Below, piece by piece: positions 13,202 to 30,619 of a DNA stretch of 64,000 nt. This DNA is from an uncultured Omnitrophica bacterium (GTDB lineage: Bacteria; Omnitrophota; Gorgyraeia; JACQQV01): positions 82,015-146,014 of the forward strand of contig CAMTXH010000010.1 in NCBI GenBank assembly GCA_947085655.1. Reading direction: 5' to 3'. Both the position numbers and the translations under genes were made by a program. Position 1 is the stretch's first letter. Every line of letters starts with the position of its first letter. A model generated the notes under the pieces. It was not told the DNA's origin and searched no databases. It saw only the letters and a list, made by a program, of their open reading frames with translations.

Positions 13202-14412
13202 GATTTTTCCAGGAGGGACAGATACATCTGATGGTATCTCCTCGCCCCCTCTTCCAGGGAAAGTTGTGAGGCGGCCACGCGGCGGCATCTTTCGGAAAGC
13301 TCCTTCCCCTCTCTTAAAAGCGCGGTCAGGGCATCCGCGGCACGTTGATAACTTTCCCCCGAGAAATCGGAAACGACGACGCCTACACTGTTTTCCCGAA
13401 TGAGTGCTTCGGTATCCCCCACATCCGCATTCAGGACTACGGGAAGCCCCGCAGCAAGGTATTCACCCACCTTGGTGGGGCTGGAGGCCATTTTTGAGAA
13501 GACCGGTTTGATAAACGAAATCCCCGCCTGGGCCGATAAGAGCGTTTTGGGGACGTCTTCGTAGGAACTTTGCCGGATGATGAGCCCGTTTCCTGAATGG
13601 CGGCGGAGTCTCTCCCACAATTTTCGGTCACCGGTTTGGGTTAAAATCTGAAATGAGGCATTCGGAATCCTCGTCTTCAAAACCCGATAAAAATCAAGCA
13701 TCGGTTCCAGAAGATACCACGTACCGAGTGACCCCACATACACCAGAACAACCCCTTCCTGAACCGCAGACACCCTTGCCGGGCCTGCTTCCTCAAATCG
13801 CCTCACATCCACGCAGCAAGGAATCACGGCGACCGGCACCTGGTCACGAGTGGCCCTTTTCTGTTTGAGGTAGGCGGCGGCGCGATGGGTGAGCACAACC
13901 ACGCCATCCGCCGACTTCAAAAAGCGCTGCTCGAGGGCGGAGACAAGTCTGTACATCACTCCATGGCGCTTCCAAATTCCGCCATCCGCATATTCCTCCG
14001 CCAGAAAACCCCTCACATCAAATAAAAAGGGTCTTTTTTGCAGCCGTGAAATCATCCATCCGATACTGGCCGGAATGGTCCCCCGCGCATGGATCATCTC
14101 CACGGCATGCCTTTGCGCCAAACGCCGAGCCACCGCAAAACCGGTTACAAGATCCATCGATGTCGACAAAAGAGGGGGAAATTTATGGTACCGGCACCAG
14201 GTCCATCGGATGCCCCCTTCTGCGAGCTCCTCACGGAAACGACGCATCCCGGATTTCCCCAACCGCACGCAGTCTTCCTTTTTCTCAAAGGTCAAGAGGA
14301 TGATCTCAATCCCCTTTTGTGCAAGTCTCCTCAGGTACGGCAAACCCTGCGACTTAAAAATCGGCTCAAGCGCCCCGTTGTAAGAGAGAAATAAAACGCG
14401 TTTAACTGTCAT
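13198..14412 (-). CDS. GT4 (group 1) glycosyltransferase
   Basis: ORF trimmed to MTVKRVLFLSYNG (ATG 14410-14412 after upstream stop); C-terminal GEYLAAGLPVVLNADVGDTEALIRENSVGVVV. Confidence 0.7.
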   Translation of the reverse strand: MTVKRVLFLSYNGALEPIFKSQGLPYLRRLAQKGIEIILLTFEKKEDCVRLGKSGMRRFREELAEGGIRWTWCRYHKFPPLLSTSMDLVTGFAVARRLAQRHAVEMIHARGTIPASIGWMISRLQKRPFLFDVRGFLAEEYADGGIWKRHGVMYRLVSALEQRFLKSADGVVVLTHRAAAYLKQKRATRDQVPVAVIPCCVDVRRFEEAGPARVSAVQEGVVLVYVGSLGTWYLLEPMLDFYRVLKTRIPNASFQILTQTGDRKLWERLRRHSGNGLIIRQSSYEDVPKTLLSAQAGISFIKPVFSKMASSPTKVGEYLAAGLPVVLNADVGDTEALIRENSVGVVVSDFSGESYQRAADALTALLREGKELSERCRRVAASQLSLEEGARRYHQMYLSLLEKS

Positions 14413-15853
14413 GGCGCCGAACCTCCCAAAGCGGACCCTGAGGAATAAGGGTAAAACGTTTCTCCAATTCGCGAATGCTATAGTAATTTTCCTCGTTATC
14501 CGCAAGATAAACCGGACGGCGTCCGGTTTCCCTTTCAATCAACCGGTAAAGCTCCTCCCTTTTTTCGGGGAAAAAGACATACCGGTCAATCGTGGCGTCA
14601 ATGGAGACGTCCGGCCGCAGGCCTTCTATCTCTTGGTAATAGAGGAGAACCATCATCGGCGTAAAATCGCCGATGATTAAACTGCCCGGTTTTACGACTT
14701 CGAGAGATGCCAAACCGTACTGCCTCGGTCCGAATTCGCTGCGCTTGACGGGATTGAGGTAAAAGCGGTTATTGTCCCGGAAGGCGAGCTGCCGGCCGCG
14801 TACAAAGTCGATTTGATAACGTTTCGAAAAATGTGGCAGACTGAGGTACAATCCGACCGGCAGGATGACCAAAAGAGCCAGGGCCCCCAGCGCGAAGGAG
14901 GGATGGCTCGCTCCTTTGGATGCCATCGCTCCTCTTAGGCCAAAACCGATCCAGACCGCGAAGAGGACGTAAGTGGGAAGCATCAGAAAAAAATTTCGCT
15001 GCCGCATATAACCACAGGCAAGGAGGATATTCAGGAAAAACACCGTCAGCAAAACCCAGAAGAACTTCCCTCTTTCCCGAACCATCTTCCTGGTGCCCAG
15101 AAGACCCAATCCGAATCCAACAAAAGGAAACTGGTAAAAGAGGTAGGCGGGATAAAGACTCAGTTCCGATAACAGGTCGCCGGGCCTCAAAAACCATCTG
15201 TTCGCTCCCAAGTCCAAAGGGGCGTTCCTGAACGCCAAAATCAGCATCGGAGAACATCCGAGGAGAAAACAAACAATGCCCAACAGACCCCGGTCGCTCA
15301 AAAGCCACCGCCTCCCCCGTTCCAGAAGCAGGAGATAGAAAAAGGTTGCGATAATCATCAATCCGGACAAGAGGTTATTGAGAAGGGCCACCCCCATCAG
15401 AAAAAAATGCAGGATAAGATAGACGTCTTTTCTTTTCTCCTCCCATGTCAACAGGAGGAAAAAGCCGGTTGTAAAAAAAAAGATGCAAAGTGAATAAGAC
15501 TCGTTGATCACCGAGGCCAGCCAGAAGGTGTGCGAAAGCCCCAGACAGACCGTCGCCAAAAACGCCGCGGCTTCGTGCTGCAGAAGCCGGCGCATCGCCA
15601 GGTAAAAGAACCAGAGGGCCAAAATCCCAAAAAAGGCGGACATGAGGTTTTGCCTGTAGGCAAAGTCGCCGAAGGGCAACCAACTGAAGAGTTTCCCGAT
15701 GAGCGTGTGAAGCATATGGTTCCCTACCGGATCAAACACGATGGTCATTTCCTTGACATAGATCGCCAGTTTTGCTGAATCCCCCCAGAGAACGGTCGGG
15801 GCGAGGGTGTACCAATACAGGACGGCGAAAACGCTGACCGCTAAAAGTCCCAT
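14402..15853 (-). CDS. GT-C fold membrane glycosyltransferase, DUF2723/TMEM260-like
   Basis: N-terminal YWYTLAPTVLWGDSAKL motif resembling DUF2723 start, multi-TM N-half plus soluble C-terminal domain; immediately downstream of a DPM1-like GT2. Confidence 0.45.
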   Translation of the reverse strand: MGLLAVSVFAVLYWYTLAPTVLWGDSAKLAIYVKEMTIVFDPVGNHMLHTLIGKLFSWLPFGDFAYRQNLMSAFFGILALWFFYLAMRRLLQHEAAAFLATVCLGLSHTFWLASVINESYSLCIFFFTTGFFLLLTWEEKRKDVYLILHFFLMGVALLNNLLSGLMIIATFFYLLLLERGRRWLLSDRGLLGIVCFLLGCSPMLILAFRNAPLDLGANRWFLRPGDLLSELSLYPAYLFYQFPFVGFGLGLLGTRKMVRERGKFFWVLLTVFFLNILLACGYMRQRNFFLMLPTYVLFAVWIGFGLRGAMASKGASHPSFALGALALLVILPVGLYLSLPHFSKRYQIDFVRGRQLAFRDNNRFYLNPVKRSEFGPRQYGLASLEVVKPGSLIIGDFTPMMVLLYYQEIEGLRPDVSIDATIDRYVFFPEKREELYRLIERETGRRPVYLADNEENYYSIRELEKRFTLIPQGPLWEVRRHDS

Positions 15854-16548
15854 CAGTCGACAAACCTGTATTTCAGAAGAGCCCAGAGCGCCAAAAAGCC
15901 GTCGGTCCAGTGAATCTTTTTCCCTTCAGCATAGGTCCTGCCGTAATAGGAAATGGGAATTTCATACACCCGCCACTTGCGCTTAAAAATTTTTGCTGTG
16001 AGCTCCGGCTCGATCCGAAAATCGCTCGAACGGAGCGTCATCCCCTGAATCACCTCCCGGCGAAACACTTTATATCCCGTCTCCATGTCACTGAGGGTCG
16101 TGTTGTAGAGAAAACCGGTCACGAAGGTGAGAAAATTGTTTCCCAGTTTATGCCAAAAGAGATAAACGCGCTGTGGTTTGGCGGCGGAAAGCCGGGAGCC
16201 GTACACCACATCGGCAACCCCTTGTTGAATCGGTTCAATCAGTTCGGGGTACTCCGAAGGATCGTACTCCAAATCGGCATCCTGGGTCAGAATAATCTCT
16301 CCCGTTGCATGTCTGAAACCTGTCCGAAGGGCCGCTCCCTTTCCGAGGTTTTTCTCATGGTAAAACACCTTCACCCCCTCATCCCCCAAAGACGCTTCTA
16401 TCGCCTTCAGTCTGCGGCGGGTCTCCTCGGAAGAGCCGTCGTCTACAATGAGAATCTCCTTCTCCAAAGGCACTTCCCTCACTCTCCGAACGATCTCCTC
16501 GACCGTGTCGGTTTCATTGAAAACAGGCATGATCACCGAAATCTTCAT
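15853..16548 (-). CDS. GT2 polyprenyl-phosphate sugar synthase (DPM1/GtrB-like, soluble 231 aa)
   Basis: ISVIMPVFNE...LIVDDGSSEET...TQDADLEYDP signature of dolichyl/undecaprenyl-phosphate glycosyltransferases. Confidence 0.8.
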   Translation of the reverse strand: MKISVIMPVFNETDTVEEIVRRVREVPLEKEILIVDDGSSEETRRRLKAIEASLGDEGVKVFYHEKNLGKGAALRTGFRHATGEIILTQDADLEYDPSEYPELIEPIQQGVADVVYGSRLSAAKPQRVYLFWHKLGNNFLTFVTGFLYNTTLSDMETGYKVFRREVIQGMTLRSSDFRIEPELTAKIFKRKWRVYEIPISYYGRTYAEGKKIHWTDGFLALWALLKYRFVD

Positions 16549-17906
16549 AGAGGAACCTCTTGGACGTCCTGGCTGGATTTCTCCGCATGGGACAACCCGA
16601 CCGCAAGAAAGATCAGGGCGTAATAGAGCGTCATGGCACGGTGCCGGAACAACGTCCCAAGATTCGAGTCGATAAGGCCCATGAACAAAGAGAAGCCTAT
16701 AAAAATGAAGAGCATCAAATGGGTTTCTCTGCGCGCGTAGTGCAACGCCTGACGCATTCCCTGGATGATAAACGGAACGCAGAAGTAGAGGACGGAGATC
16801 TCGATGGCCCCGATGAAGAAAAAGGTGCTCCCGATCTGCCAGGGGAAGGGTGCGAAGAGGGCATAGACGATCCCAAGGGGGGCGAATAAGAGAAGGCCCC
16901 TGATGTCGGACAGACGCGACTCCTCCAAAAAGGAGGACGTTCCATAGGCCCTCACCGTCCTAAGATAATTAAACCACTCGAGCGGAGAACTCTTCTCCAC
17001 AAAAAAGGTCTTGAGCATCGTTTCCTGCGTCCCTACATGATAGACATGATATAAATAAGCAAGGGGCGCCACCGAGATAGCGACAAGGATGATGAGCAGG
17101 ATGCACAAGAATTTCATCTTTCTCCAGAGCAGGGTCGATCCTAAAAACCAAACTGTGCCAAAGAGCAGAATAAGGCCCAAGGCGGGTGCCCTCAGCAAGA
17201 AAAGCAGATACGCAAGGACCAGGCCGGCCAAGAGAGACGGCACCTTAAGGCGCTTCCGATTCTCGATCAGGCACCAGACCAGGAGGAAAACCATTATATT
17301 GACCGCAGGATCCCGAAGGTTTAGAGTCGACCAGAATAAAAGCGACGGCCAGAAGGCGGAGAAGATCAAGGCGAGACGGGCCGGTCTTGGACCGAAAAAC
17401 TTCTGTGTGAAGAGATAGACGAAAATGGCAGACCAGGTCCCGATCAAGGCATTGATAAACAAGAGGGACAATGGGCTCTTGCCGGTTACGGCGTAGAGAG
17501 CCGCATTCCAGGCTTCAAAAGGACCGGGATTGGTATCTGTCTGACTCTTAAATAACATGGACTCTTCATGGAAGACCCCCCGCTCACGCAACATCAGCAT
17601 CTGCCAGGCGTTTTCGCTGTACGCGTATCCGTCATTTGCGAAATAAAAGCCGGGCCGGAAGCCCATGTCAGCATAGGAAAGGATGTTAAAGGGCAGGATG
17701 AGACTGACGCGAAGGAGGATTGCAAGGAGGAAAATATGAATCACTTGGCCTCTTTTTTCCTGGGAGACGCCCATAGAGACGAATGCAATCCCGGCGAGGA
17801 TCCCGGCTAACAATATCAGCCAGGGGCTGATCCACCCCAACCCAAAGCCCAGCTCCGAAACCCATCCCTGCAGAGGAAAATCCCCCAACAGAAAATCTCG
17901 CATCAT
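16545..17906 (-). CDS. polytopic integral membrane protein, possible GT-C glycosyltransferase or polymerase
   Basis: 453 aa, more than 10 hydrophobic segments, no recognisable soluble domain; operon position next to GT2/GT-C pair. Confidence 0.35.
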   Translation of the reverse strand: MMRDFLLGDFPLQGWVSELGFGLGWISPWLILLAGILAGIAFVSMGVSQEKRGQVIHIFLLAILLRVSLILPFNILSYADMGFRPGFYFANDGYAYSENAWQMLMLRERGVFHEESMLFKSQTDTNPGPFEAWNAALYAVTGKSPLSLLFINALIGTWSAIFVYLFTQKFFGPRPARLALIFSAFWPSLLFWSTLNLRDPAVNIMVFLLVWCLIENRKRLKVPSLLAGLVLAYLLFLLRAPALGLILLFGTVWFLGSTLLWRKMKFLCILLIILVAISVAPLAYLYHVYHVGTQETMLKTFFVEKSSPLEWFNYLRTVRAYGTSSFLEESRLSDIRGLLLFAPLGIVYALFAPFPWQIGSTFFFIGAIEISVLYFCVPFIIQGMRQALHYARRETHLMLFIFIGFSLFMGLIDSNLGTLFRHRAMTLYYALIFLAVGLSHAEKSSQDVQEVPL

Positions 17907-19585
17907 TTGAAAACCTCAGCCGGTCGGCCCTTTTCAAAATGCCGCACCCACTCCCGCCAACCATCACCCTCCGTGACCTGGGCGCCTTTCCGGGCCTGCG
18001 AAAAGAGCTCCGAGGGGGTAAAATAACGCGCGCCCGGAATGTGCAGATCCGAAAATTTCTCACCGAGTAGAACACTGGAGGACGCCGAGTCCCTCTTCTC
18101 CAGCCGATCCCGAACCCAAACAGAGCCCGCCTCTACAAAGCGGACCTCTCGTTCGAACCCGAAATGTTTACCCCGGTTATTTTGAATCAGCAGACGTCGC
18201 AAGAAACGTTTGAGCGGGAAGGCGACCGGTGCCCTGAGACTCGATAACCAGCCGACGATGCGCAGCACAAAAAGCTTCCATGTAGAAAGGAGGTGCGTCT
18301 TGCGGTGAAAACAGGATCCTGTCACCCGAAATCCATTGGGATGGACTTCTACCCGGCACTTAGGATCCAAAACACCGGCGATACTGGTTCCGGAAGCGCT
18401 CTTCGCAACGATTCCGGCATCGTACAAAACCTCGTTCCCCTTTTTGGAAAACCACTTGAAGGTCCCGCCTTTTCCCAGGTTCGCCACCAGATACCCTTCA
18501 GGATCCCCATGAACCAGAAGCTGGGCACTTGGGAAATAGCGGTGGAAATTTTCGACCTCACAGGGCAACTGTTCAATGCCCGTAAGGGACAGGCTGCCCG
18601 ATGTCTCCGCCGCTTGAAGAAAGGGGTAGGCGATATAACAAAGATACCGGTCATCCAGATCGTATAGGCCGATCAGGGTCCGCTTTTCCAACCCTTCTCT
18701 CACAAACGCTGCCATACGGGCCGCCACTACGCTGTAGGGGGCAAGGATCTCGATCCCGTGGGGAATCAGGTACTCGGTATTCCGGCTGCCATACTCCCCT
18801 CCCGCGGTGCCGTTCGGATGGAGGAAGTGACTGAGGAATTGCAGGGATTTTTCCAAAACAGGAAGCAGCGATGGGTCCTGAACCTTCTGGAAATACTTGG
18901 CCAGGTAATCCACCGTCAAGGAGAGATAGCCGATATCAGGGCCTCCGTATTCTTGAAACCACCCTTCTTCACTCTGATGTCTCAACAAGAAATCGATTTT
19001 CTGGCGCGCGCCCCTTTCAAATTGCCGATCCTTTGTAACAAGAAAGAGGTTCTGGAGGGCCGCGGCGGCCCCTGCTTCCTGATTGAGTACGTCGTGTTCG
19101 TCATGTTTCAGAAGCCAGGCCCCTGCCCGCGCCAGCGCTTCCACACCCTCCTGACACTGAATCTCGTCATCCAGCGCAAGGAGGGCCTCTGAAACGGCGT
19201 ATGAAGAAAAAGCGGTCGCCACAAAGCTCTTCTCCCCCGGATACCACTCGCTGAAGGAGCCATCGCGCGCTTGGATCTGACACCAAAAATGAAGGGCTGC
19301 TTCGACCCAACGTTTCAGAAGCGGGTTTCCCTCGTAAGGAGGGTAGCCGGATCCTTTTCTGTAAAGGAGGGCAAGCGTCAAGGCCGCCTCCTGAAAGCGG
19401 ACCCCTGCAAAGTCCGTCATCTTGTAATGCCAAAAGGTCCTGTCAAAACAACCGTACGTTGTGGAACCCGGATGCCGGTCCAGGAGACTCAAAAGACGCG
19501 GGACCTGCTCCAAGACTTGAAGTCGGTAAACGTCCCCGCTCTCCTGCTTGGACTCTCTCATCTCATCAAGGGATATCGGTCGCAT
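17903..19585 (-). CDS. uncharacterised soluble protein, paralogue of 41949..42923 with 240-aa C-terminal extension
   Basis: shares TYGCFDRTFWHYKMTDF...QEAALTLALLY and EWYPGEKSFVATAFSSYAVSEA blocks with the 324-aa paralogue; no recognised catalytic motif. Confidence 0.4.
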   Translation of the reverse strand: MRPISLDEMRESKQESGDVYRLQVLEQVPRLLSLLDRHPGSTTYGCFDRTFWHYKMTDFAGVRFQEAALTLALLYRKGSGYPPYEGNPLLKRWVEAALHFWCQIQARDGSFSEWYPGEKSFVATAFSSYAVSEALLALDDEIQCQEGVEALARAGAWLLKHDEHDVLNQEAGAAAALQNLFLVTKDRQFERGARQKIDFLLRHQSEEGWFQEYGGPDIGYLSLTVDYLAKYFQKVQDPSLLPVLEKSLQFLSHFLHPNGTAGGEYGSRNTEYLIPHGIEILAPYSVVAARMAAFVREGLEKRTLIGLYDLDDRYLCYIAYPFLQAAETSGSLSLTGIEQLPCEVENFHRYFPSAQLLVHGDPEGYLVANLGKGGTFKWFSKKGNEVLYDAGIVAKSASGTSIAGVLDPKCRVEVHPNGFRVTGSCFHRKTHLLSTWKLFVLRIVGWLSSLRAPVAFPLKRFLRRLLIQNNRGKHFGFEREVRFVEAGSVWVRDRLEKRDSASSSVLLGEKFSDLHIPGARYFTPSELFSQARKGAQVTEGDGWREWVRHFEKGRPAEVFK

Positions 19586-19590
19586 CGGTC

Positions 19591-20304
19591 TCAGTTATAA
19601 AATTTCTTCTCGAAACGTTTGGCCAAGGGATAAAGATATTTTCGCTTGGGGCACAAATAATAGAGCTGTCGCAGAATCCGCCGGGTGAGAATCCGCCAGT
19701 CAATCAAAGGCAACTTCGGTTTCTTAAAATCGAAGGTGTTGTAAGCGTAGACATCCTGAAGCGTGTATTTCAATTCGTGGGGCCGGAGTTCGTATGAATA
19801 ATAGCCCATCGACACAAAGGCCACAGGGTCATAGGTCCTCGGGATTTTGAACATTCTTCTTAACTCCCGTTTCGGAGGCAGGTGAAGCACCCAGCAGCAG
19901 CCGATATTGTAACAATGGGCCATGAGAATCATATTCTGAACGGCGGCAGCCGCACTCTGAACAGGATCCTGGTAGGTCACATTATCGGTCCTGTTTTCGT
20001 AGCAGACCAGGATCCCTTGCGGTGCATCCCGCAGGAAGGTTGCGCCCCCCCGGTCGAACATCTCCTGAATGAGCCGTCTGTCATTGACAACGATAAATTT
20101 CCATCCCTGGATGTTGCAGGCGGTGGGCGTATGGACCGCCGCCTCAATCAGTTTCTGGATGATGTGATCGTCAATCAAATCCTGCCGATAACGCCTGACC
20201 GAGCGACGCCCCTTGATCACCTCAAGGAGTCGCCGCGCCTTTTCAGGAAGGTCGGATGCAGATACTTTCTCGTTGTCCCTTGTCATGACCATCGAGGCCT
20301 TCAT
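19591..20304 (-). CDS. nitroreductase-family NAD(P)H/FMN oxidoreductase
   Basis: ORF trimmed to MKASMVM (ATGA overlap 20301-20304); RRSVRRY...AVHTPTACNIQGWKFIVV nitroreductase signature. Confidence 0.65.
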   Translation of the reverse strand: MKASMVMTRDNEKVSASDLPEKARRLLEVIKGRRSVRRYRQDLIDDHIIQKLIEAAVHTPTACNIQGWKFIVVNDRRLIQEMFDRGGATFLRDAPQGILVCYENRTDNVTYQDPVQSAAAAVQNMILMAHCYNIGCCWVLHLPPKRELRRMFKIPRTYDPVAFVSMGYYSYELRPHELKYTLQDVYAYNTFDFKKPKLPLIDWRILTRRILRQLYYLCPKRKYLYPLAKRFEKKFYN

Positions 20305-20963
20305 CTCCTTGGCCCCATCCCCACACAAATGGTCCACGGAAACGAGCTGATGTTCCGGATCTCTCTGAAATAAGGTTTGATCATTTTAATGAAAGCTGCC
20401 TGATTCCAGAATTGAACATGCTCCGGGTCCCGTCCCAACCGGGCGAGATGTTTTCCCCTGGCGAAATTCCCCAAACTAAATAGCGGTTCATTGGGAACGC
20501 TTACAATGACTGTATGGCGGCTCACCCGACACAGTTCTGTTAGAGCCCGTATGGGCTCCTTGAGGTGCTCCAAGATCTCAAGCGCCATGACCAGGTCGAA
20601 ACTTTGTGCGGCAAAATGGAGAGAAGTGACATTTCCCTCGGAAAATGAGACTCCCGGATTGAGTTCGCTTGCTATTGCCAGGGCTTCTGCGTTTCTATCC
20701 ACGCCCTCGAAACGGGCCTTGATGCCGTGACGGCGCAAATGAGAAATAACAAACCCTTCGCCACAGCCTATTTCTAAGACATCGTCACAATGAAGCATGG
20801 AGACTGTTTCAAGAATCTTGTCGAGAAACCGGCCTATTAAAAAACGGGCCAAACGGTTTTTTGTTAGATATTTATTGTAATTACTTGAGGAGTAGGTTGC
20901 TCGGTGACGAACCGTTTCAAAATATTTCACATTTTCCAGAACTTCCATTCCTTCAGACTCCAT
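20301..20963 (-). CDS. class I SAM-dependent methyltransferase
   Basis: VLEIGCGEGFV motif I, DLVMALEILEHL motif II/III region. Confidence 0.7.
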   Translation of the reverse strand: MESEGMEVLENVKYFETVRHRATYSSSNYNKYLTKNRLARFLIGRFLDKILETVSMLHCDDVLEIGCGEGFVISHLRRHGIKARFEGVDRNAEALAIASELNPGVSFSEGNVTSLHFAAQSFDLVMALEILEHLKEPIRALTELCRVSRHTVIVSVPNEPLFSLGNFARGKHLARLGRDPEHVQFWNQAAFIKMIKPYFREIRNISSFPWTICVGMGPRR

Positions 20964-20987
20964 GCGAAAACGTTTCGGGCCGTTTCG

Positions 20988-21974
20988 TCACCCTATCCTC
21001 TCCTTTTCTTCAACCGGCTGCCCGGTGGAGGCGTATTCCCCCCCTCCCTCCAGGAACGGGGACCCTTGATGAAAATGATGCACAATCAATTCACCCAAAA
21101 GCCCCACGCAGAAAAATTGAATGCCCGATAAAATCAGGAGAATCCCGAGGAAAAGGAGGGGCCTATTGCCGATCGGCCGTTGACCCATGAACCATAGAAG
21201 AGATAAGTAACTACAAATCAAAACGCCCAAGCCCCCTGTAATCAATCCCGGCCGGCCCAGAAAATGGAGGGGCCGCTTCAGATACTGGGTTAAAAAAAGG
21301 ACCGTCAGGAGGTCCAAAAAACCCTCCACATAACGCCCGGGCCCAAACTTCGTCTTTCCGAATTTCCGCGCGCGATGCCGCACTTTGGCTTCGGAGACGC
21401 GAAATCCCTTCTGATGCGCCAAGACCGCGATGAACCGGTGGAGCTGGCCATACAGTCTCAGTTCTTTGACGACTTCCCGCCGGTAGCATTTCATTCCGCA
21501 GTTAAAATCGTGGAGCGGGATGCCGGTCATGGATGCCGTGACACGGTTGAAAAATTTCGAGGAGATCTTTTTCAGGAAGGGGTCTTGTCGGTTTGTCTTC
21601 CAACCCGAGACAAGGTCATACCCCTCCTCGAGCTTCCTGAGCAGAACCGGAATTTCGTGCGGATCATCCTGAAGATCCCCATCGAGGGTGACCACCACAT
21701 CCCCCCGTGCCTCCTCAAAACCCTTCTGCATGGCAGCAGATTTCCCAAAATTCCTCCTGAAACGGATTACCTTCAAAGAGTCGAAGTTCTCCTTGAGCGA
21801 CTGGAGACGTTGAGGGGTATCATCGGTGCTGCCATCGTCCACGAGAACGATCTCATAGTCGTCCACGGAAAGACTCAGGAAAACCTCGGAGATCTCCTGA
21901 AGCAGCGGCGCCAGACTGTCGGCTTCGTTAAAGACCGGGACAACAACCGAAAGACGAGGGGCTTTCTGTTTCAT
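20988..21974 (-). CDS. GT2 polyprenyl-phosphate sugar transferase (ArnC/GtrB-like with C-terminal TM helices)
   Basis: LSVVVPVFNE...VLVDDGSTDDT...TLDGDLQDDP; two hydrophobic C-terminal helices (LLTVLFLTQY..., LLFLGILLILSGIQFFCVGLLGEL). Confidence 0.8.
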   Translation of the reverse strand: MKQKAPRLSVVVPVFNEADSLAPLLQEISEVFLSLSVDDYEIVLVDDGSTDDTPQRLQSLKENFDSLKVIRFRRNFGKSAAMQKGFEEARGDVVVTLDGDLQDDPHEIPVLLRKLEEGYDLVSGWKTNRQDPFLKKISSKFFNRVTASMTGIPLHDFNCGMKCYRREVVKELRLYGQLHRFIAVLAHQKGFRVSEAKVRHRARKFGKTKFGPGRYVEGFLDLLTVLFLTQYLKRPLHFLGRPGLITGGLGVLICSYLSLLWFMGQRPIGNRPLLFLGILLILSGIQFFCVGLLGELIVHHFHQGSPFLEGGGEYASTGQPVEEKERIG

Positions 21975-23725
21975 CTTCTTCCCCGCTTGGCCGATGGGTG
22001 TAAGGCGTAAATTTTAATGGTCGGACCAGGTCGATTGAAACGATAAAGACCCTCAAAGGGACCGTGCACTCCGTAGAGAACGGCAACAGTCTCTTTCTCG
22101 TTCCGGAAAGGATGGAAAACTTTCACCAATTCGGCCTTTTCATCCAACTTTTGGTAAAAGCGGGAAATTTTCGGGGAGTTTGTGACACGGTCTCTCCAGA
22201 AGCTGGAAAGGACCACGTAGTCGACCCCCCGTGCCCTTAAGGCATCGAAGTCATAATGGTTTTCATATTTTGGGAAATAGGATTCCCGGTCGGAAATATC
22301 GATCAGTTCATACCGGGGCCCCGCTATCTGGAAACGCTGCAGCGCTTCCCGTGTTTTCCCTTTCAATGGATTTTGCAATTTCAGTTCCTTCAAAATCGCC
22401 TCGTTTTGCCCGGAAGTCTCCGCCAAAGGCGGAACCCACGCCTGGATCGCCAGGTACCGCTCCAGGGCAATGACGGAATGGGGAGGGATATGGGTCTCAA
22501 TCCACTCTTTGGCGGAGGTCCTGGTGTCCTTTTGAGAGAGGAGATAATTGTGATAGATGTCGCTGGCCGCCGAAGGAAAAATCAGGGCTCCGGCCAAGGA
22601 ACCGGTCAAAACCGTTTTCCAAAATTGGGGGAGAGTGAGTCGGGAACAACAGGCCTCCACCGCAACAGCTGCGAGAATACATAAGAAAGGTGTTAGGGGC
22701 ATTACATAAGGAGGGAGTTTGCTTTCTAGATTTTCAAAGACAAGATAATAGATGAGGGGGAAGAGAATAAGAAAGATCGCTTTCTTTTCAGGGTGTCCTA
22801 GGACAAAAACGAGGCCCAGACATGCCGCAATCAGAAAAGCCCATCCCACCCCGATAGGCAAAATCTCTTTGGCATAGGCCAGATTGAACGACCATCCCGC
22901 AGACGAGCCAGGGCCAAGAGCACGGTTGACCAAAAGGCCGAATTCCTTGAAAACGGAAGGGAAATCCAAAAAGACAAAAGGACTCGTCATAAAAAGACCC
23001 AGGCCCATCATCAAGAGACCGCCAAACAGCAAGGGGTGCCAAAAGGACATTCTCTCTGGCTGAGAGCGGTCAAAGACCCGAAGAAGATGTGCCACCCCAT
23101 ACAGAGGGACGAGGAGCAGCGCATTCCAGTTGGCCGAAATGGCTAACCCCGTCAGGAATCCGCTTCCCAAATAGGCTGCCCGTCGACCCCCGGAAACCAT
23201 ACCGAGATACGCTGCGACACAACAGGTGATGAAAAAGGTAACAGGGACGTCATGCCGCATGTAATGGGAATTCCGGACATGGAGAAACGGGAGAGCCATG
23301 AAGAAAGCGGAAAGGAGCGCCACCCGCCGGGAAAAGACTTTTCGTGCCAAGGTGTAGGTGGCCCAAATGGTAGCGGTCCCGAAAAGGACGCCCATCACAA
23401 AACGACCGATGAGGTAAAAGGAGGATGGATTTGTAAAAAAGAGCCGCTCAAAGTCCGACAGAGAGGCAAACCAACCCAGCCCCTTCCCTAAGAGAAAATA
23501 ACACCCATAGATAAAGAATAGGGAGTAATGGATGAGGTGGGGATGCCAGAAATAGTGAGGATGGAGGTCGCCGGTTCCAAACCCCAATGTCACGTTCATT
23601 GTCATCCCTTCATCCTGGTGGTAAAGATAGGGCAGGCCAAAATCAATTCCCCATAGACGCACCAAAAAACCTCCGATCAGAATGAAAATCAAATAAAGGT
23701 TATATGGAGAACCGTTTCTGAACAT
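21971..23725 (-). CDS. GT-C glycosyltransferase of the ArnT/PMT (GT39/GT83-like) family
   Basis: 584 aa polytopic; N-terminal loop motif YLYHQDEGM; overlaps (4 nt) the preceding ArnC-like GT2, the classical ArnC/ArnT or GtrB/GtrC arrangement. Confidence 0.6.
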   Translation of the reverse strand: MFRNGSPYNLYLIFILIGGFLVRLWGIDFGLPYLYHQDEGMTMNVTLGFGTGDLHPHYFWHPHLIHYSLFFIYGCYFLLGKGLGWFASLSDFERLFFTNPSSFYLIGRFVMGVLFGTATIWATYTLARKVFSRRVALLSAFFMALPFLHVRNSHYMRHDVPVTFFITCCVAAYLGMVSGGRRAAYLGSGFLTGLAISANWNALLLVPLYGVAHLLRVFDRSQPERMSFWHPLLFGGLLMMGLGLFMTSPFVFLDFPSVFKEFGLLVNRALGPGSSAGWSFNLAYAKEILPIGVGWAFLIAACLGLVFVLGHPEKKAIFLILFPLIYYLVFENLESKLPPYVMPLTPFLCILAAVAVEACCSRLTLPQFWKTVLTGSLAGALIFPSAASDIYHNYLLSQKDTRTSAKEWIETHIPPHSVIALERYLAIQAWVPPLAETSGQNEAILKELKLQNPLKGKTREALQRFQIAGPRYELIDISDRESYFPKYENHYDFDALRARGVDYVVLSSFWRDRVTNSPKISRFYQKLDEKAELVKVFHPFRNEKETVAVLYGVHGPFEGLYRFNRPGPTIKIYALHPSAKRGRR

Positions 23726-23737
23726 GGAGAAACACCG

Positions 23738-24988
23738 TTACCAAATTCCAGTGATGTGTAAGGAAGATGCCAAAAGTCGCTTAAAGGGTTCTGAAAAAGC
23801 CGCCAAGGTTGCATGGATGACCAAAAAAACTGAAACGATCGCCCATCCCATAGAACGCCGCGGAAGTTTCTGAAAGAGTTCCAGAAGACCAAAGGCACCC
23901 AGTATCACGATAAAAGGCTCGATGGGCAGCCGAAACCTCGGAGACCCATAAAAAAGAAGGGCCATCCCCTGGAAATAAAGAATGGGGACCAGAAAAAAAA
24001 GACGTTTCCCTTTCGCCAGGAACAGGCCGAGGAGGAAAAAAGGGAAGATGAAACCGTACAAGATATGATAACGGCCGTCCCCCAAAATTTCCCAGTCAAA
24101 AGGCGCCCAGAAATAAAGAAATTTCAGCAATTCCAAACGGATGAGGGAAGCCGGGCTTTCACGGATATCCTCAATCGTCTTTTGAAAAAGATAGGCGCTC
24201 ATTTCTGTTTCGGATCCGAGTTGTCTTGCAAAAGCTGTTCTCTCATCCTTGACGTTCACTCCAAAAACCTTGCCGTCCACGGGATGGTAGGCGCTATAAA
24301 AAGCGTATCCGCCCTGTGTCGAGACCGGCACAAAGGTTCGATGCACATAGAAGTTTCGTATCGCGAGAGGTAAAAGGCAGAGAAGGAATATTCCCAACAA
24401 AACCATCCCTTTCTTAAACCCTTTGCGGCCGTGCAGGAAAATAAGATACCCCGCCGCAACAAATGGCAAGAGAAAGGTCATCCCCTTTATCAAAGTCGCT
24501 ATGCCGAAGAAAAATCCTGAAAAGACAATGTCCGTCTGAGTCCCCTTTTGCAACGAAAAGAAAGCTCCTAAAAAGCAGAGGGTGAAGAGACATTCCGTCA
24601 AGAGAAGGGTGCTCGTCGCGATAGAGGGGAAATTCACAAGCATCAAGACCGATGCAAGAAGCGCGACAGCCGAGCCAAAGGGTCTTCTTGCCATTTCATA
24701 GACCAGATTGCAAACCAACGCACCCAAAAGGGCCTGTATGACATAAACGGCTTTCAGGTTGCCTCTCCCAAAGAGGCGATACACAGAGGCAACAAACATG
24801 GGGTAAAGGGGTGGCCGGGTATAGGTTTGCTCCTCGCTCCGGTAACCCCTTCCCTCCTCAAGCGAAACCGCGAAGGCATGGTAGTCACTCTCATCGCCGC
24901 GGAGTTGCGGCTCGGCAGGAATCATCCAGAGCCGGAGCGCCACTGCCACCCCCCAAAGAATCAAGTGAAACCAAATTATTTTCCCGCG
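23738..24988 (-). CDS. GT-C glycosyltransferase, ArnT-like (PMT_2 family)
   Basis: ORF 23738..25051 trimmed to MRGKIIWFHL; first-loop motif RGDESDYHAFAVSLEEGRGY typical of ArnT-like enzymes; C-terminus GSPRFRLPIEP shared with paralogue at 29321..30619. Confidence 0.6.
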   Translation of the reverse strand, partial: RGKIIWFHLILWGVAVALRLWMIPAEPQLRGDESDYHAFAVSLEEGRGYRSEEQTYTRPPLYPMFVASVYRLFGRGNLKAVYVIQALLGALVCNLVYEMARRPFGSAVALLASVLMLVNFPSIATSTLLLTECLFTLCFLGAFFSLQKGTQTDIVFSGFFFGIATLIKGMTFLLPFVAAGYLIFLHGRKGFKKGMVLLGIFLLCLLPLAIRNFYVHRTFVPVSTQGGYAFYSAYHPVDGKVFGVNVKDERTAFARQLGSETEMSAYLFQKTIEDIRESPASLIRLELLKFLYFWAPFDWEILGDGRYHILYGFIFPFFLLGLFLAKGKRLFFLVPILYFQGMALLFYGSPRFRLPIEPFIVILGAFGLLELFQKLPRRSMGWAIVSVFLVIHATLAAFSEPFKRLLASSLHITGIW

Positions 24989-24996
24989 CATGGTCA

Positions 24997-25725
24997 CTAT
25001 TTCCTGAGGCCCAATCCGAGATAAACAATCGGTTTCAACATACTCCACCATCCTGTGATCGGCTTCATCTTTGTATAACCCAGCTTCTTCGGAGGATAAA
25101 TTTTCGTTGCCGGAACTTCTTTTACACGGTATCCGAGCCGGATGCTCTTATAATAGAGGTAAGGTTCCAGTTCATACTGGTTCAACCAATCCTGATCGAT
25201 CCGAATCCGATCGTCCCGAAGGAGCGATAAACGAAAAGCCCTGAAGCCGTTGGTGCTGTCGGTGATCCAACGCCTTGTGATGAGCGAAAAAAGAAAGGGA
25301 TGGATATAGCGTGTTGCCGCGATCCGGTAAAGGGGCATCGCTCCAAATCTTCCTCCGTTCAGATAACGGGATCCCTGCACGAAATCGTAATCTTCCTGAA
25401 AAAGTGCCTCCAGAAGTTGGGGTATTTCAGAGGGATTGTCTTTGTCGTTTCCGGCGAGAACAACGACCGCATCCGCGTTTTTCTGTTGTGCATAGCGGAG
25501 ACCTGTTCGTAACGCAGTGCCGACACCCCTTGTTTGTGGATGGGAAATAATATAAGCCCCTTCCCGCCTTGCCTCTTCAGATGTCCCATCGGAGGAGCCG
25601 TCGTCCACCACCACAACCTCATTCACCGGAGGGCGCGGGATTTTGGAGACGACTTTCCCAATCTTCCGGGATTCGTTAAACGCCGGAATCAGAGCAACAA
25701 CATAAGGATGAGATGGACCGTCCAA
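24997..25725 (-). CDS. GT2 polyprenyl-phosphate sugar synthase (DPM1-like)
   Basis: VVALIPAFNE...VVVVDDGSSDGT...VLAGNDKDNP. Confidence 0.8.
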   Translation of the reverse strand: MDGPSHPYVVALIPAFNESRKIGKVVSKIPRPPVNEVVVVDDGSSDGTSEEARREGAYIISHPQTRGVGTALRTGLRYAQQKNADAVVVLAGNDKDNPSEIPQLLEALFQEDYDFVQGSRYLNGGRFGAMPLYRIAATRYIHPFLFSLITRRWITDSTNGFRAFRLSLLRDDRIRIDQDWLNQYELEPYLYYKSIRLGYRVKEVPATKIYPPKKLGYTKMKPITGWWSMLKPIVYLGLGLRK

Positions 25726-25752
25726 ATGAGAATTCCCTCTTTCAAAAACACT

Positions 25753-26349
25753 TTACCTTTTCTGCAGAGCTCCCCGAACCTGTGCAGGGTTTCCGTAAGC
25801 GACAACCTCCTCTGGAATGTCGCGAGTGACAACACTCCCTGAGCCAATCAAACTCCCTGCACCCACATGGATGCCCGGCAGGAGAATAACCCCCGCACCA
25901 ATTTTTGCTCCCCGGTGAATATGAGGCCCAGGGAAGTTCTTTAAGGCGATATACTTGTCATTGGTCGTCACCACGCCGGGACCGATAAAAACGTCGTCCT
26001 CCACAACGGTATATTGTGCGAGATAGACCTGATTATGAAGTTTGACGCGATTTCCGATCCGGCATCCATAGTCAATGATTGAATGACTCCAAATGCAGAC
26101 CTCGTCGCCAATCTGGTTTTCTTCGCGGATGACAACATGATGTCCAGTCGCAAGCTTTGCACCGATGCGTGTGCCCGCATAGATGACGGTTCCGGAACGG
26201 AGGATGGCGGCATCCCCGATGAATGTCTCCTTGTTTGCAATCTGCCGCGAGGGGAGGCATCCGATCAGGACGTCCGGATCCATCTGGACATCCTTTCCCA
26301 GCACCACATGAGAACCAAAGGATCGAGAAGGCCGTGTTTTCTTTCTCAT
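25753..26349 (-). CDS. left-handed beta-helix sugar N-acetyltransferase (WbpD/PglD/NeuD-like hexapeptide transferase)
   Basis: repeated hexapeptide [LIV]-G-x-x-x-x pattern (IGDAAIL, IGAKLATG, IGNRVKL, IGPGVVT, IGAGVIL, VGAGSLIGSGSVV). Confidence 0.7.
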   Translation of the reverse strand: MRKKTRPSRSFGSHVVLGKDVQMDPDVLIGCLPSRQIANKETFIGDAAILRSGTVIYAGTRIGAKLATGHHVVIREENQIGDEVCIWSHSIIDYGCRIGNRVKLHNQVYLAQYTVVEDDVFIGPGVVTTNDKYIALKNFPGPHIHRGAKIGAGVILLPGIHVGAGSLIGSGSVVTRDIPEEVVAYGNPAQVRGALQKR

Positions 26350-27380
26350 GCGAAGACCTTTACCGGAAGTCCCTTTTTCCGGATAGACTTCTGAATGGCC
26401 TCAAGAATCTGAACTACTTTCACCCCCATTTGGCCATCGCTAATCGGTTTTTTGCCGTTTGTAATCGATGATAGAAACGCCTCTGCCTGAACCTGAAGCG
26501 GTTCAGCCAAATAGACCTTTGGAATCAGCACGTCTCCGTCGCGCGATAAAAAATGAAACTCGCCGAATGTCCTGTAGTTCTGTGACCGCATCACGCCTTT
26601 ATCGTAGATCCGTATGGGCTCGATGGGGTTCATGTCGTCCCAGATGGCCATCTTTTCACTTCCTACAACAGTAATCTCCCGAACCTTCCGGGGGTCTAGC
26701 CAGCTGACCTGGACATTTGCGATGATATTGTGAGGATACGTCAAGGTAACGACCGCGATATCCTCTATCCGTGGCTGGATAAAGGTCGCCCCTTTGGCCG
26801 TCACCTCCGTCGGTGTGACGCCAAGTAAATACGATAAGATTGAGATATCATGGGCAGCCAAATCCCAAACGACGTTCACATCCTTCCGGATGGGCCCGAG
26901 ATTCGTCCGAAGAGACCGGATATAACAAGGTTTACCAAGAGTCCCCTTCTGAATATAGTCATGCAGCCGTTGGATCCCCAGATTGAAAAGAAAGGTGTGT
27001 CCGACGAAGAGGAGACGCCTCTTCTTTTTGGCAAGGGTCACCAACTTTTTGGCCTTTTCAGAGGTGGTGGTCAAAGGTTTCTCGCAAAGTACATGCTTTC
27101 CGTGCTCAAGACAGGTTTTGACAATGTCAAAATGGGTTGACGTCGGCGTGGCAACGACGACGGCCTCCACATCAGTGCGTTTCAAAAGAGACCTATAGTC
27201 CGAGACCGTCTCCAGGGACGGATAAAGCTCCTTCACCAAATTTTGACGGGAGGGGTCCCTGTCTGCACAAACAACGACCCGGCCGCCAGAGACTTGTGAA
27301 AAAATCCGAATGTGATTTTTCCCCCATTCTCCGCAACCGATGATCCCAATATTGATTCGTTCCCGGTTATTCGTTCGCAT
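26346..27380 (-). CDS. Gfo/Idh/MocA-family NAD(P)-dependent oxidoreductase (WbpB-like nucleotide-sugar dehydrogenase)
   Basis: ORF trimmed to MRTNNRERINIGIIGCGEWGKNH Rossmann start; C-terminal alpha/beta domain. Confidence 0.7.
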   Translation of the reverse strand: MRTNNRERINIGIIGCGEWGKNHIRIFSQVSGGRVVVCADRDPSRQNLVKELYPSLETVSDYRSLLKRTDVEAVVVATPTSTHFDIVKTCLEHGKHVLCEKPLTTTSEKAKKLVTLAKKKRRLLFVGHTFLFNLGIQRLHDYIQKGTLGKPCYIRSLRTNLGPIRKDVNVVWDLAAHDISILSYLLGVTPTEVTAKGATFIQPRIEDIAVVTLTYPHNIIANVQVSWLDPRKVREITVVGSEKMAIWDDMNPIEPIRIYDKGVMRSQNYRTFGEFHFLSRDGDVLIPKVYLAEPLQVQAEAFLSSITNGKKPISDGQMGVKVVQILEAIQKSIRKKGLPVKVFA

Positions 27381-29310: not shown

Positions 29311-29320
29311 AAACGTTCTC

Positions 29321-30619
29321 CTACCAAAGTCCCAGACGCGCCGCGAATGCCGACGCCTGGAGACGGATGGCATCTGAATTCACAAAGAGAAGTGACATCG
29401 CCCCGAGCCAGCCGCCCGAAAGAACCGACGGAACCCACTTCCGCGAGAAAAACGAAAAGAATCTCGCCAGCGCGACGGCACCGAAGAGAATCAAAACCGG
29501 TTCAAAGGGCAACCGGTACCGCGGCGTCCCTTGAAAAACAAGACTGACGACGTGAAGATAGAGGAGCGGAACATACAACACCCACAAGTCCTGAAAATGC
29601 CTGAGCGATGCCGCCATCCCCCACAGGATAAAAGGCAGAAGAAATCCGTAGGTCGGGTTAAACATCCCTCCCCCTAAAACCTCCCAGTCAAACGGCGACC
29701 AGAGCAAACCGATTTTTAACGCCTCAAGGCGGGGTATCCGGCCGGGGTTCTCACGGATAAACCGCCATCCCTCCCGAAACAGAAAACGGCTCCTGTCGAT
29801 TTCAGAGTCGAAATGAGCGTTGGCATAATGTGTCGTCTCATCATGTGTGATGAATCCGAGGAGTTTCCCTTCAGGCGGCCGATAAGAGGAATAAAAGGTA
29901 ACCCCTCCGTTTGTAGAGATCGGGGTCCATTGTCCGTATCGATGAAGATTCCGAAGCTCCCAGGGAAGGAGAACAAGATAGAAGGCCAAAAACATTCCCA
30001 AGGAAAGACCGAATCGTCTGTGCCACGACCACGAACGCCTTGTGAGGATTCCCCCCATGAGAAACACTGGAAAGAGGACGATGCTTGTTTTGGTTAGACT
30101 CGCCAATCCCAGACAAATCCCCAATACGCCCGATGTCCTCCAGCCATCTCCCTGATAGACCCGGAGAAGAAGATAGAGTGCTGTGATGAAGAGAAAGGTA
30201 AAAAGAGACTCCGACAGAACCATCGAAGAGACCTTAATCAATGAAAGGGAAAACACGCACAAAAGAAGCGACAAAAGCGCAAGCCGCGGTCCCAAAATCC
30301 TCTTTCCGATCAGATAGGTCAAGGCACAGGTTGCGGTTCCCAAGAACGCCTGAATGATCAGAACAGGAAACAGATTCCGTCCGAATACTCTGTATATGAG
30401 AGAGAGGAAGATCGGGTACAAGGGGGGATGGAAGAAATCGAGTTCCCTGAGATCTTCCCCGCCCGAAGCCAGCAACCAGCCGGTGGCATCGTACCAGGTC
30501 GCATCTCCCTGGAGGGTCTGGCCGGCATGCATGCCGGCGCTCCATAGCCGCAGAAAAAGTGCAAGGCCCAGCAGAAACATCACCCCCCACCCCTCCTTTT
30601 TCCGGAACAAGGTCTCCAT
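29321..30619 (-). CDS. GT-C glycosyltransferase, ArnT-like (PMT_2 family); paralogue of 23738..24988
   Basis: polytopic; QGDATWYDATGWLLASG first-loop motif; C-terminal GTPRYRLPFEP matches paralogue. Confidence 0.6.
   Translation of the reverse strand: METLFRKKEGWGVMFLLGLALFLRLWSAGMHAGQTLQGDATWYDATGWLLASGGEDLRELDFFHPPLYPIFLSLIYRVFGRNLFPVLIIQAFLGTATCALTYLIGKRILGPRLALLSLLLCVFSLSLIKVSSMVLSESLFTFLFITALYLLLRVYQGDGWRTSGVLGICLGLASLTKTSIVLFPVFLMGGILTRRSWSWHRRFGLSLGMFLAFYLVLLPWELRNLHRYGQWTPISTNGGVTFYSSYRPPEGKLLGFITHDETTHYANAHFDSEIDRSRFLFREGWRFIRENPGRIPRLEALKIGLLWSPFDWEVLGGGMFNPTYGFLLPFILWGMAASLRHFQDLWVLYVPLLYLHVVSLVFQGTPRYRLPFEPVLILFGAVALARFFSFFSRKWVPSVLSGGWLGAMSLLFVNSDAIRLQASAFAARLGLW

Follow-up and report, generated by a model that had tools for sequence, protein, structure and literature searches.

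The window analysed here, a 64,000-nucleotide stretch of DNA from an uncultured Omnitrophica bacterium (contig CAMTXH010000010.1), is one ~60-kb co-directional array of glycan-biosynthesis genes. Within it we investigated two related open reading frames (ORFs) on the minus strand: ORF A, a long form of 560 aa (17903..19585), and ORF B, a short form of 324 aa (41949..42923) that consists of a helical toroid alone. Directly 3' of B lies a micro-ORF of 58 aa (41776..41952, minus strand; MKMTPFRFLLLRLYLVTLGKIPEASQLLKRFLVWRFIRSREEKYVASSRYFTPSELNK), the ATG of which overlaps the B stop codon (ATGA). A and B are best read as members of one ancient family that forms an accessory part of lipid-carrier ('three-component') glycosylation modules. 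Both ORFs were found exactly where a preliminary description of this DNA had placed them, and a called protein identical to ORF A is held in NCBI assembly GCA_964374045.1. The same description had regarded the two as paralogs, and the similarity survives proper alignment: by BLASTP they share 41% identity and 57% positives over 318 aligned residues (E 2e-69), with B aligning solely to residues 9-326 of A. The motif blocks, as read in translation, are TYGCFDRTFWHYKMTDFAGVRFQEAALTLALLY and EWYPGEKSFVATAFSSYAVSEA in A and TFGCFDRGYWHYKSIDFPNTRYQEACWLLALLY and EAYPNERGFCATAFTCWAVTEA in B. Both of the blocks quoted earlier are thereby present, but the gap between 'DF' and '(Y/F)QEA' is four residues and not three.

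The view that both proteins are soluble and free of transmembrane (TM) segments was borne out by a 19-residue hydropathy scan, in which the maxima were 1.47 for A and 1.49 for B; 123 of 145 family members likewise scored zero TM segments. No signal-peptide-like N-terminus was seen in A, B or the family consensus when the sequences were read by eye rather than with a dedicated predictor. The pair had also been described as outside any named family and without a recognised catalytic motif, and profile searches left it there: no Pfam or NCBIfam model passed, nothing usable came from the NCBIfam scan of either protein, no catalytic motif was found, and the check for assignment to a housekeeping family gave none. 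Below the 22-bit gathering threshold, Pec_lyase (PF09492, PL10) scored 19.8 bits over 38 residues of A and 13.9 bits on B. LANC_like reached E 0.066 on B (12.2 bits against a cut-off of 23.2) and did not match A, and Ulvan_lyase_N (PF25840) appeared on A as a precomputed match marked 'weak' that was absent from a local Pfam scan at E <= 1. Sequence-profile searches of the PDB gave no significant match, the long form yielding marginal matches only (AprG, E 0.015; heparinase II/III-like 6lja, E 0.056) and the short form none. The AprG match, being marginal, was not used as support.

Full-length homologs of A number in the hundreds (~540 aa, 37-46% identity). Their archaeal hosts are Woesearchaeota, Altiarchaeota, Nanoarchaeia, Heimdallarchaeota, Theionarchaea and Methanosarcinales, and their bacterial hosts include Dictyoglomota, candidate-phyla bacteria, Omnitrophota, Planctomycetota, Myxococcota and others; their annotations read 'hypothetical' or 'terpene cyclase/mutase family'. 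When one genome per species was scanned, relatives turned up in at least 580 species of archaea and bacteria. When the short-form profile was run exhaustively with HMMER against 1.84 billion cluster representatives (clusters at 50% identity), it returned 2,084 matches at E <= 1e-3, 935 of them at E <= 1e-30. ORF B falls in a short subfamily of 303-341 aa that comprises more than 100 clusters; its nearest relatives are Omnitrophota short forms (67-69% identity), and other short forms occur in Elusimicrobia, Brocadiia, Nitrospirae, Solidesulfovibrio and Ferrovibrio. A neighbour-joining tree of the toroid regions, rooted on a distant Streptomyces relative and drawn without support values, placed all 47 short forms in one clade with no long form within it. 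Since the short forms are monophyletic in this tree, A and B are ancient paralogs rather than products of a local duplication, and the family has two ancient forms. Two simpler origins of B were considered and excluded. A recent in-genome duplication of A conflicts with the monophyly of the 47 short forms and with the identities of B, 67-69% to Omnitrophota short forms and 41% to A; a truncated pseudogene conflicts with the more than 100 clusters of the same length and with a structural model of B at pLDDT 95.6.

The Streptomyces relative used as the root is a 651-aa protein with no Pfam match (locus L168, 7722-9677, Streptomyces sp. NBC_01591 plasmid NZ_CP109328.1). It is 29% identical to A over A residues 43-260 and keeps part of the motif set. 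The genes around it are sugar-catabolic, namely a PF12831 FAD oxidoreductase, an ABC sugar-binding protein, a permease and a GH5 enzyme, and the protein may represent a carbohydrate-active family as yet unrecognised. With a GH5 gene and a sugar ABC transporter for neighbours, it makes it probable that the wider toroid superfamily is carbohydrate-active. A plasmid search also yielded homologs, in records that carry no annotation at those positions.

AlphaFold2 (AF2) returned confident models of both proteins (A, pLDDT 89.5 and pTM 0.92; B, pLDDT 95.6 and pTM 0.92). In the model of A, residues ~18-328 form an all-helical toroid of the (alpha/alpha)6 type and residues ~347-551 a C-terminal beta-sandwich, which is interrupted by an inserted basic helical hairpin (~434-468) and ends in a conserved tail (P517 S518 .. 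Y521 F522 ..EL). The model of B is toroid only, without the sandwich. Foldseek was run on the predicted structures, as the preliminary description had proposed, and gave toroid-type matches for both proteins; with lyases, an epimerase and glycoside hydrolase (GH) barrels among the matches, the suggestion of an alpha/alpha-toroid fold like that of carbohydrate enzymes held. The best PDB matches of A were toroid-plus-sandwich lyases (2x03, 8khv, 8fyg, 8r6z and 7bjt at the top), with the polysaccharide lyase (PL) family PL8 structure 2x03 at E 5e-8 and TMq 0.49. Further matches were PL33, PL17, PL39, PL12 and PL40, the PL40 ulvan lyase 9vtk at E 2.9e-4, and also GH127; the lyase matches as a whole, 2x03 included, spanned E 5e-8 to 3e-4. 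Identity to the lyase structures was 9-12% and the TM-score at most 0.49. For B, Foldseek found generic barrels only, at E 2e-4 or worse (2e-4 to 2e-3), TMq up to 0.59 and 8-15% identity: GlcNAc 2-epimerase, mannose isomerase, complement TED, class II terpene cyclases, GH88, GH76 and GH127. The AGE structures 8bry and 1fp3 were matched at TMq 0.59 and 12-14% identity. As judged from the models, solved structures resemble A and B at the level of fold alone.

Across both forms ~19 polar or aromatic positions are held in common, namely R30, G45, C46, D48, R49, W52, Y54, Q65, E66, E113, E118, N168, Q169, E212, Y213, D217, Y220, R268 and D311-D312-R313. They persist across archaea and bacteria at an overall identity of 35-45%, and this pattern of conservation suggests a ligand-binding or active site. 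Among residues of the types that heparinase II/III-like lyases use in their cleft, as a Tyr/His acid-base pair and an Asn/Arg neutraliser of the carboxylate, Y213, Y220, Y314, N168, N179 and R268 are invariant and His53 is kept in 80-86% of sequences. C46 is the sole cysteine conserved in both forms.

ORFs equivalent to the micro-ORF, of 57-68 aa, lie directly 3' of short-form genes in unrelated contigs, and from four of them we built a hidden Markov model (HMM). By this HMM, a micro-ORF is directly downstream of 46 of the 56 short-form genes and is present anywhere in the locus at 49 of 53 assessable short-form loci. Ten loci have no adjacent micro-ORF; three of these are at a contig edge and three have the ORF one gene further on, and the HMM found none at four (three unique) of the 56. 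The same HMM matches the long-form C-terminal domain in two pieces, which correspond to the hairpin and the tail (e.g. E 1e-9). The string 'RYFTPSEL' is identical in A ('...PGARYFTPSEL') and in the window micro-ORF ('...ASSRYFTPSEL'), and the micro-ORF is conserved over its whole length. On these sequence comparisons the micro-ORF is homologous to the hairpin and SSRYF..EL tail of the long-form C-terminal domain. Given that homology, a short form together with its micro-protein is a split long form, in which the strands of the sandwich have been lost and the hairpin and tail retained. What had been missed earlier, in short, is that B belongs to a distinct monophyletic short subfamily and is accompanied by a 58-aa micro-ORF that supplies an A-type hairpin and tail.

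The exact sequence of the window micro-ORF is missing from a collection of 15 billion proteins, so it was apparently left uncalled in the source assembly. Fifty-one called homologs (55-82 aa) were found, all named 'hypothetical' and some from cultured Fundidesulfovibrio and Solidesulfovibrio. Four loci encode the micro-domain as an N-terminal fusion to the following protein: a formyltransferase (L107, 3476-4441), a UPF0104 flippase (L117, 3584-4687), an S-adenosylmethionine (SAM) methyltransferase (L092, 7508-8299) and a 912-aa protein with no Pfam match (L130, 8789-11527). Fusion to four kinds of partner suggests that the partner proteins are physically coupled to the toroid. The idea that the basic hairpin is an amphipathic in-plane membrane anchor was dropped, as the hydrophobic moments of four helices (0.02-0.54) were not above those of shuffled controls.

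The gene neighbourhoods were then compared over 145 non-redundant loci by means of our own ORF calls, BLAST clustering, jackhmmer families and Pfam checks. Neighbours were tabulated up to three genes from the toroid gene at loci that extended for two or more genes to either side, which left 69 long-form and 27 short-form loci. GT2s of ~310 aa that carry TM helices at the C-terminus are the commonest neighbours; a GT2 was present at 53/69 long-form and 13/27 short-form loci (Fisher p 0.013). Long forms pair with nitroreductases (26/69 against 0/27, p 6e-5), which stand immediately beside the toroid gene at 22 of the 69 loci. Short forms pair instead with HpnJ-like B12 radical SAM enzymes (19/27 against 14/69 for long forms, p 8e-6), methyltransferases (15/27 against 21/69, p 0.034) and AsnB-like amidotransferases (8/27 against 7/69, p 0.028). 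UPF0104 (LPG_synthase_TM) proteins were counted at 20/69 long-form and 11/27 short-form loci and PMT_2-type GT-C proteins at 22/69 and 4/27; STT3 genes also recur near toroid genes, along with UPF0104 and PMT_2. Formyltransferase genes occur in some short-form loci, and the Pfam neighbour census contained no recurrent nucleotide-sugar enzymes.

In the typical order an ArnC/AglJ-like GT2 lies upstream of the toroid gene and a UPF0104 flippase, a GT-C enzyme or both lie downstream, and the strict co-directional arrangement of GT2, toroid and polytopic membrane protein was seen at 16 of 87 long-form loci. A cultured Phyllobacterium, sp. A18/5-2, carries a cassette of GT2, toroid, UPF0104 and a 428-aa protein, in that order, at ~72-78 kb of a megaplasmid (NZ_CP104967.1); Gemmatimonas is another cultured host of the family. 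Directly 3' of the toroid gene in Dictyoglomota is a UPF0104(LPG_synthase_TM)-PMT_2 fusion of ~760-950 aa (L011, 2725-5007; also L010, L012, L017, L020 and L028). At four Woesearchaeota loci (L004, L008, L019 and L058) the toroid gene is followed by one for a SpoIIM-like protein with seven TM segments and then by the oligosaccharyltransferase STT3/AglB, an order that links the toroid family to archaeal N-glycosylation loci.

The surroundings of A and B in the window are of the same kind. From 16545 to 46545, gaps between consecutive minus-strand ORFs (those of at least 180 aa, together with the 58-aa ORF) are at most 27 nucleotides and many starts and stops overlap; with gaps this short, the proposal that A and B share an operon is plausible. 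All genes given with coordinates in this and the following paragraph are on the minus strand unless stated otherwise. A nitroreductase-family gene, the typical long-form partner, lies 5 nucleotides upstream of A (19591..20337); its true start is probably 20304, since NCBI calls a protein of 237 aa. Beyond it are a class I SAM methyltransferase (20301..20963), an ArnC/PgfS/AglJ-like GT2 of the polyprenyl-phosphate glycosyltransferase class with two C-terminal TM segments (20988..21974) and a PMT-type GT-C membrane glycosyltransferase (21971..23725). On the other side of A, a 453-aa protein with nine predicted TM segments (16545..17906) has a start that overlaps the A stop (ATGA); it is probably GT-C-like, with a weak PMT_2 match of 25 bits against a cut-off of 26.1. 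ORF B is preceded by an AsnB-like glutamine amidotransferase (42920..44827), the stop of which overlaps the B start. The true start of this protein is MCGIFGF, residue 72 of ORF 42920..45040, and the listed 706-aa ORF begins 71 codons early. Next to it is a 572-aa protein with nine predicted TM segments and no Pfam match (44827..46545), which jackhmmer connected with PMT_2-type GT-C proteins. Downstream of the micro-ORF are a SAM methyltransferase (40896..41819), with a true start probably downstream of 41776, a B12-binding radical SAM enzyme of the typical short-form kind (39413..40915) and an AglJ/PpgS-like GT2 with C-terminal TM segments (38545..39474). The radical SAM enzyme has HpnJ as its best NCBIfam model (236 bits, below the 578-bit cut-off), followed by BchE and the AprD4 diol-dehydratase. 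HpnJ is the enzyme of hopanoid sugar ring contraction, and the window protein may act on a lipid-linked sugar by radical chemistry. The window GT2s score highest on the ArnC, PgfS, AglJ and PpgS models, all of them polyprenyl-phosphate glycosyltransferases.

The array also holds a WecA/PglC-type initiating transferase and Wzx, Wzy, MurJ-like and Wza-like export genes. Over 14402..30619 and 38545..46545 there are four ArnC/AglJ-like GT2s (starting at 15853, 20988, 24997 and 38545) and five or six PMT-type GT-C proteins (14402, 16545, 21971, 23738, 29321 and 44827). With so many GT2s and GT-Cs in one cluster, this single locus of the Wzx/Wzy type appears to combine several stacked lipid-carrier side-branch modules. 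The second of two AsnB-like amidotransferases is at 27367..29373, and for both of them the best model is the XrtA/PEP-CTERM-associated amidotransferase TIGR03108, below its cut-off. Two modules for nonulosonic- or Kdo-type sugars were also noted, one with a KdsC-like HAD protein, a KdsB-like cytidylyltransferase and a Kdo-transferase N-domain protein (32786..35419) and one with NeuB, a HAD protein, a TIM-barrel AP_endonuc_2 protein and a cytidylyltransferase (52617..55618). A formyltransferase-like ORF on the plus strand (63215..64000), recognised by jackhmmer only, runs off the window end.

The conserved neighbours point to work in the cytoplasm on lipid-linked monosaccharides, and not to the breakdown of polymers by a lyase or hydrolase, which the preliminary description had also missed. 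Homology, fold, the two forms, the micro-ORF with its relation to the long form and the gene surroundings come directly from the data; the cytoplasmic location, the lipid-linked substrate, a catalytic as opposed to a scaffolding role and the chemistry are our inferences. We tentatively propose, at a little short of an even chance, that the toroid with its hairpin and tail binds a carrier-linked sugar in the cytoplasm and either edits it or passes it to partner enzymes before it is flipped. In such a pathway an ArnC/AglJ/PpgS-like GT2 would load a monosaccharide onto polyprenyl phosphate at the inner membrane face, and the toroid, with the basic hairpin and SSRYF..EL tail, would bind the lipid-linked sugar and edit or present it. 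The sugar would then be tailored by a nitroreductase-fold flavoenzyme in long-form systems, and by HpnJ-like B12 radical SAM enzymes, SAM methyltransferases and AsnB-like amidotransferases in short-form systems. A UPF0104 (MprF-type) or other flippase would export the product, and a GT-C enzyme of the PMT_2 or STT3 type would move the sugar to an external acceptor. The hairpin and tail would act from within the sandwich in long forms, and in short forms as a ~58-aa micro-protein of their own, made by coupled translation. A more specific version, possible but held with distinctly less confidence, is that the toroid with its hairpin and tail constitutes a new class of enzyme that edits polyprenyl-phosphate-linked monosaccharides on the cytoplasmic face before flipping; in minimal cassettes the toroid would then need no partner, and elsewhere it would work together with flavin or B12-radical-SAM enzymes. 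Our leading guess at the chemistry, though at best an unlikely one, is prompted by the lyase-like architecture and by invariant Tyr, Asn, Arg and Glu residues: acid/base chemistry on the sugar, such as removal of the C5 proton of a uronate (epimerisation or elimination). The recurring AsnB-like amidotransferases would fit a carboxylate-bearing sugar.

In the Arn and hopanoid pathways a lipid-linked sugar is edited between the synthase and the flippase. The toroid occupies the same pathway and operon slot as ArnD, GpgD/HexD and HpnK, that of a soluble modifier between a synthase and a UPF0104 or other flippase. Those proteins are, however, deacylases with CE4/NodB, COG3233 or YdjC folds, to which the toroid is unrelated in both fold and sequence, and neither A nor B has a deacetylase match in Pfam. 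The hopanoid side-chain genes bring together the same protein classes, namely HpnI (a GT2), HpnJ (radical SAM), HpnL (the UPF0104 family) and squalene-hopene cyclase (a toroid), but the present family differs from squalene-hopene cyclase in being a single barrel without conserved DxDD or QW motifs. Archaea and candidate-phyla bacteria, in which the toroid family is abundant, are not known as hopanoid producers. The GtrA/B/C, ArnC/E/F/T, CsbB/GtcA/YfhO and AglD/AglR/AglS systems use the same polyprenyl-phosphate GT2, flippase and GT-C enzymes that neighbour the toroid genes, but they have been described without a soluble toroid or a micro-protein, both of which are conserved extras in the loci studied here. 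The synthase-deacetylase-flippase logic has been shown for gpgSDF, with hexSDF noted as an analogue (Khan et al., PMC12713373), and UPF0104 proteins are predicted flippases for which the archaeal GT2/UPF0104/GT-C neighbourhood has been described (Makarova et al., PMC5898192). Our literature search turned up general background on three-component systems and UPF0104 but no mention of the toroid family, and for clusters of heparinase-like and asparagine synthase genes it found nothing.

Several observations weigh against the proposed role. All neighbourhood counts are approximate, as the loci were fetched by motif patterns and ranked by similarity, the ORF rule was crude and families were assigned with jackhmmer. 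The association with GT2, flippase and GT-C genes is frequent rather than universal, 16 of the 69 long-form loci having no GT2 within three genes, and there is no UPF0104 gene within the window. In the toroid family we identified neither a cofactor nor a catalytic motif that belongs to a known enzyme class. The sugar-catabolic locus of the Streptomyces relative means that the wider superfamily may consist of hydrolase- or lyase-like enzymes acting on free glycans, and the lipid could be a phospholipid or another acceptor instead of polyprenyl phosphate.

The toroid may not be an enzyme at all but a non-catalytic hub on the membrane surface, where it would bring GT2, flippase and tailoring enzymes together and use the hairpin and tail as a docking peptide. 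The fusions of the micro-domain to a formyltransferase, a UPF0104 flippase, a methyltransferase and the 912-aa protein would suit such a hub, as would the different partner enzymes of long and short forms and the lack of a recognised catalytic motif in the toroid. We nevertheless consider a pure scaffold unlikely. Some 19 invariant or near-invariant charged and aromatic residues at 35-45% overall identity are seen more typically in active or ligand-binding sites than at protein interfaces, and minimal three-gene cassettes contain no tailoring enzyme to recruit.

A soluble substrate is another alternative, and we rate it as less likely again. In this case the toroid would be an AGE-like epimerase or isomerase that acts on a nucleotide sugar or free sugar phosphate and makes the donor for the GT2. 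The protein is soluble, the single-domain fold of B matches GlcNAc 2-epimerase and mannose isomerase (TMq 0.56-0.59), and, with no recurrent nucleotide-sugar enzyme in the census, the role of donor maker is otherwise vacant in the cassettes. These fold matches are weak, however (E ~1e-4, 10-14% identity), and the barrels of the unrelated GH76, GH88, GH127, complement TED and terpene cyclase families match B equally well. With the AGE superfamily B shares the overall barrel only; there is no profile match to it, and just one partly conserved His stands in place of the catalytic His pair. The fusion of the micro-domain to UPF0104 and the usual position of the toroid gene between the GT2 and the flippase or GT-C gene favour action at the membrane.

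The preliminary description had suggested a polysaccharide lyase, a hydrolase or a polymer-level C5-epimerase, which would trim or edit the finished glycan. The layout of A agrees with this, the toroid being followed by a beta-sandwich as in lyases of the PL8, PL12, PL15, PL17 and PL21 types; the two-domain lyases matched by structure were PL8 (2x03, 8fyg), PL33 (8r6z), PL17 (7bjt), PL39 (6jp4), PL12 (5jmd, 4fnv) and PL40 (9vtk). The weak, sub-threshold Pec_lyase and Ulvan_lyase_N matches and the GH5 gene and sugar ABC transporter beside the Streptomyces relative also lean this way. Two-domain polysaccharide lyases normally act outside the cytoplasm. A and B, unlike secreted or periplasmic lyases, have neither a TM segment (by the hydropathy scan) nor a visible signal-peptide-like N-terminus, and A differs further in the helical hairpin within its sandwich and in a genomic context that is biosynthetic and cytoplasmic. 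B lacks the sandwich, which is dispensable in the whole short subfamily. A and B pass no lyase profile in Pfam or NCBIfam, identity to the lyases is just 9-12% with TM-scores no higher than 0.49, His53 is only 80-86% conserved, and many of the loci are small GT2/flippase/GT-C cassettes without a polymerase. Taken together, these differences make action on a finished polymer improbable.

An enzyme of the terpene-cyclase or prenyl-binding type that modifies the polyprenyl carrier is a remoter prospect still. NCBI names some homologs 'terpene cyclase/mutase family protein', Foldseek matched B to the class II cyclases drimenyl-diphosphate synthase and MstE (E 3e-4 to 1e-3), and the substrate likely bears an isoprenoid chain. 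The DxDD motif of class II cyclases is not conserved, however: the family consensus is (S/W)LDDRY, with the first Asp found in A (DLDD) and not in B. The conserved positions are mostly charged or polar, unlike the aromatic lining of a cyclase cavity, and neither SQHop_cyclase nor Prenyltrans gave a Pfam match in A or B. Last, a system resembling those of ribosomally synthesised and post-translationally modified peptides, with a 58-aa precursor, a LanC-like toroid, an AsnB-like cyclase and a B12 radical SAM enzyme, has a superficially similar gene set, the weak LANC_like match in B (E 0.066) and AsnB homologs that also score on a lasso-cyclase model in its favour, but is almost certainly wrong, as GT2, flippase and GT-C genes dominate the neighbourhoods, the single invariant Cys rules out the Cys-Cys-His zinc site of LanC proteins (PF05147-type, matched below threshold and in B only), and the micro-ORF was rejected as a precursor for being homologous to an internal segment of the long form, conserved along its full length and at times fused to enzymes.

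Lipid-carrier glycosylation decorates lipopolysaccharide, teichoic acids, S-layers and archaeal N-glycans, and thereby shapes antibiotic resistance and recognition by phages and the immune system. Systems described to date have three parts: a GT2, a flippase and a GT-C enzyme. This type of pathway is already known; what is new is a soluble toroid component, its two ancient forms with different redox partners, and a conserved micro-protein that takes the place of part of a domain. If the role proposed here for the toroid is correct, the family would add a conserved soluble component and a micro-protein to these three-part systems. Under the more specific version, that of a new class of sugar-editing enzyme, lipid-carrier glycosylation would have a fourth, widespread component, present in archaea (DPANN and Asgard lineages among them) and in bacteria (the candidate-phyla radiation among them). 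Of the family, many of the at least 580 species and ~2,000 sequence clusters belong to lineages known only from metagenomes. Should the toroid instead be merely a scaffold or an ordinary sugar epimerase, the gain would be the annotation of a family and not new biology. The micro-ORF clearly illustrates how a small gene, of a kind that often goes unannotated, can stand in for a segment of a domain, and this is of relevance to genome annotation. The toroid itself is a testable candidate for the tailoring of carrier-linked sugars ahead of export, and its family marks an unexplored step in the building of microbial surface sugars.

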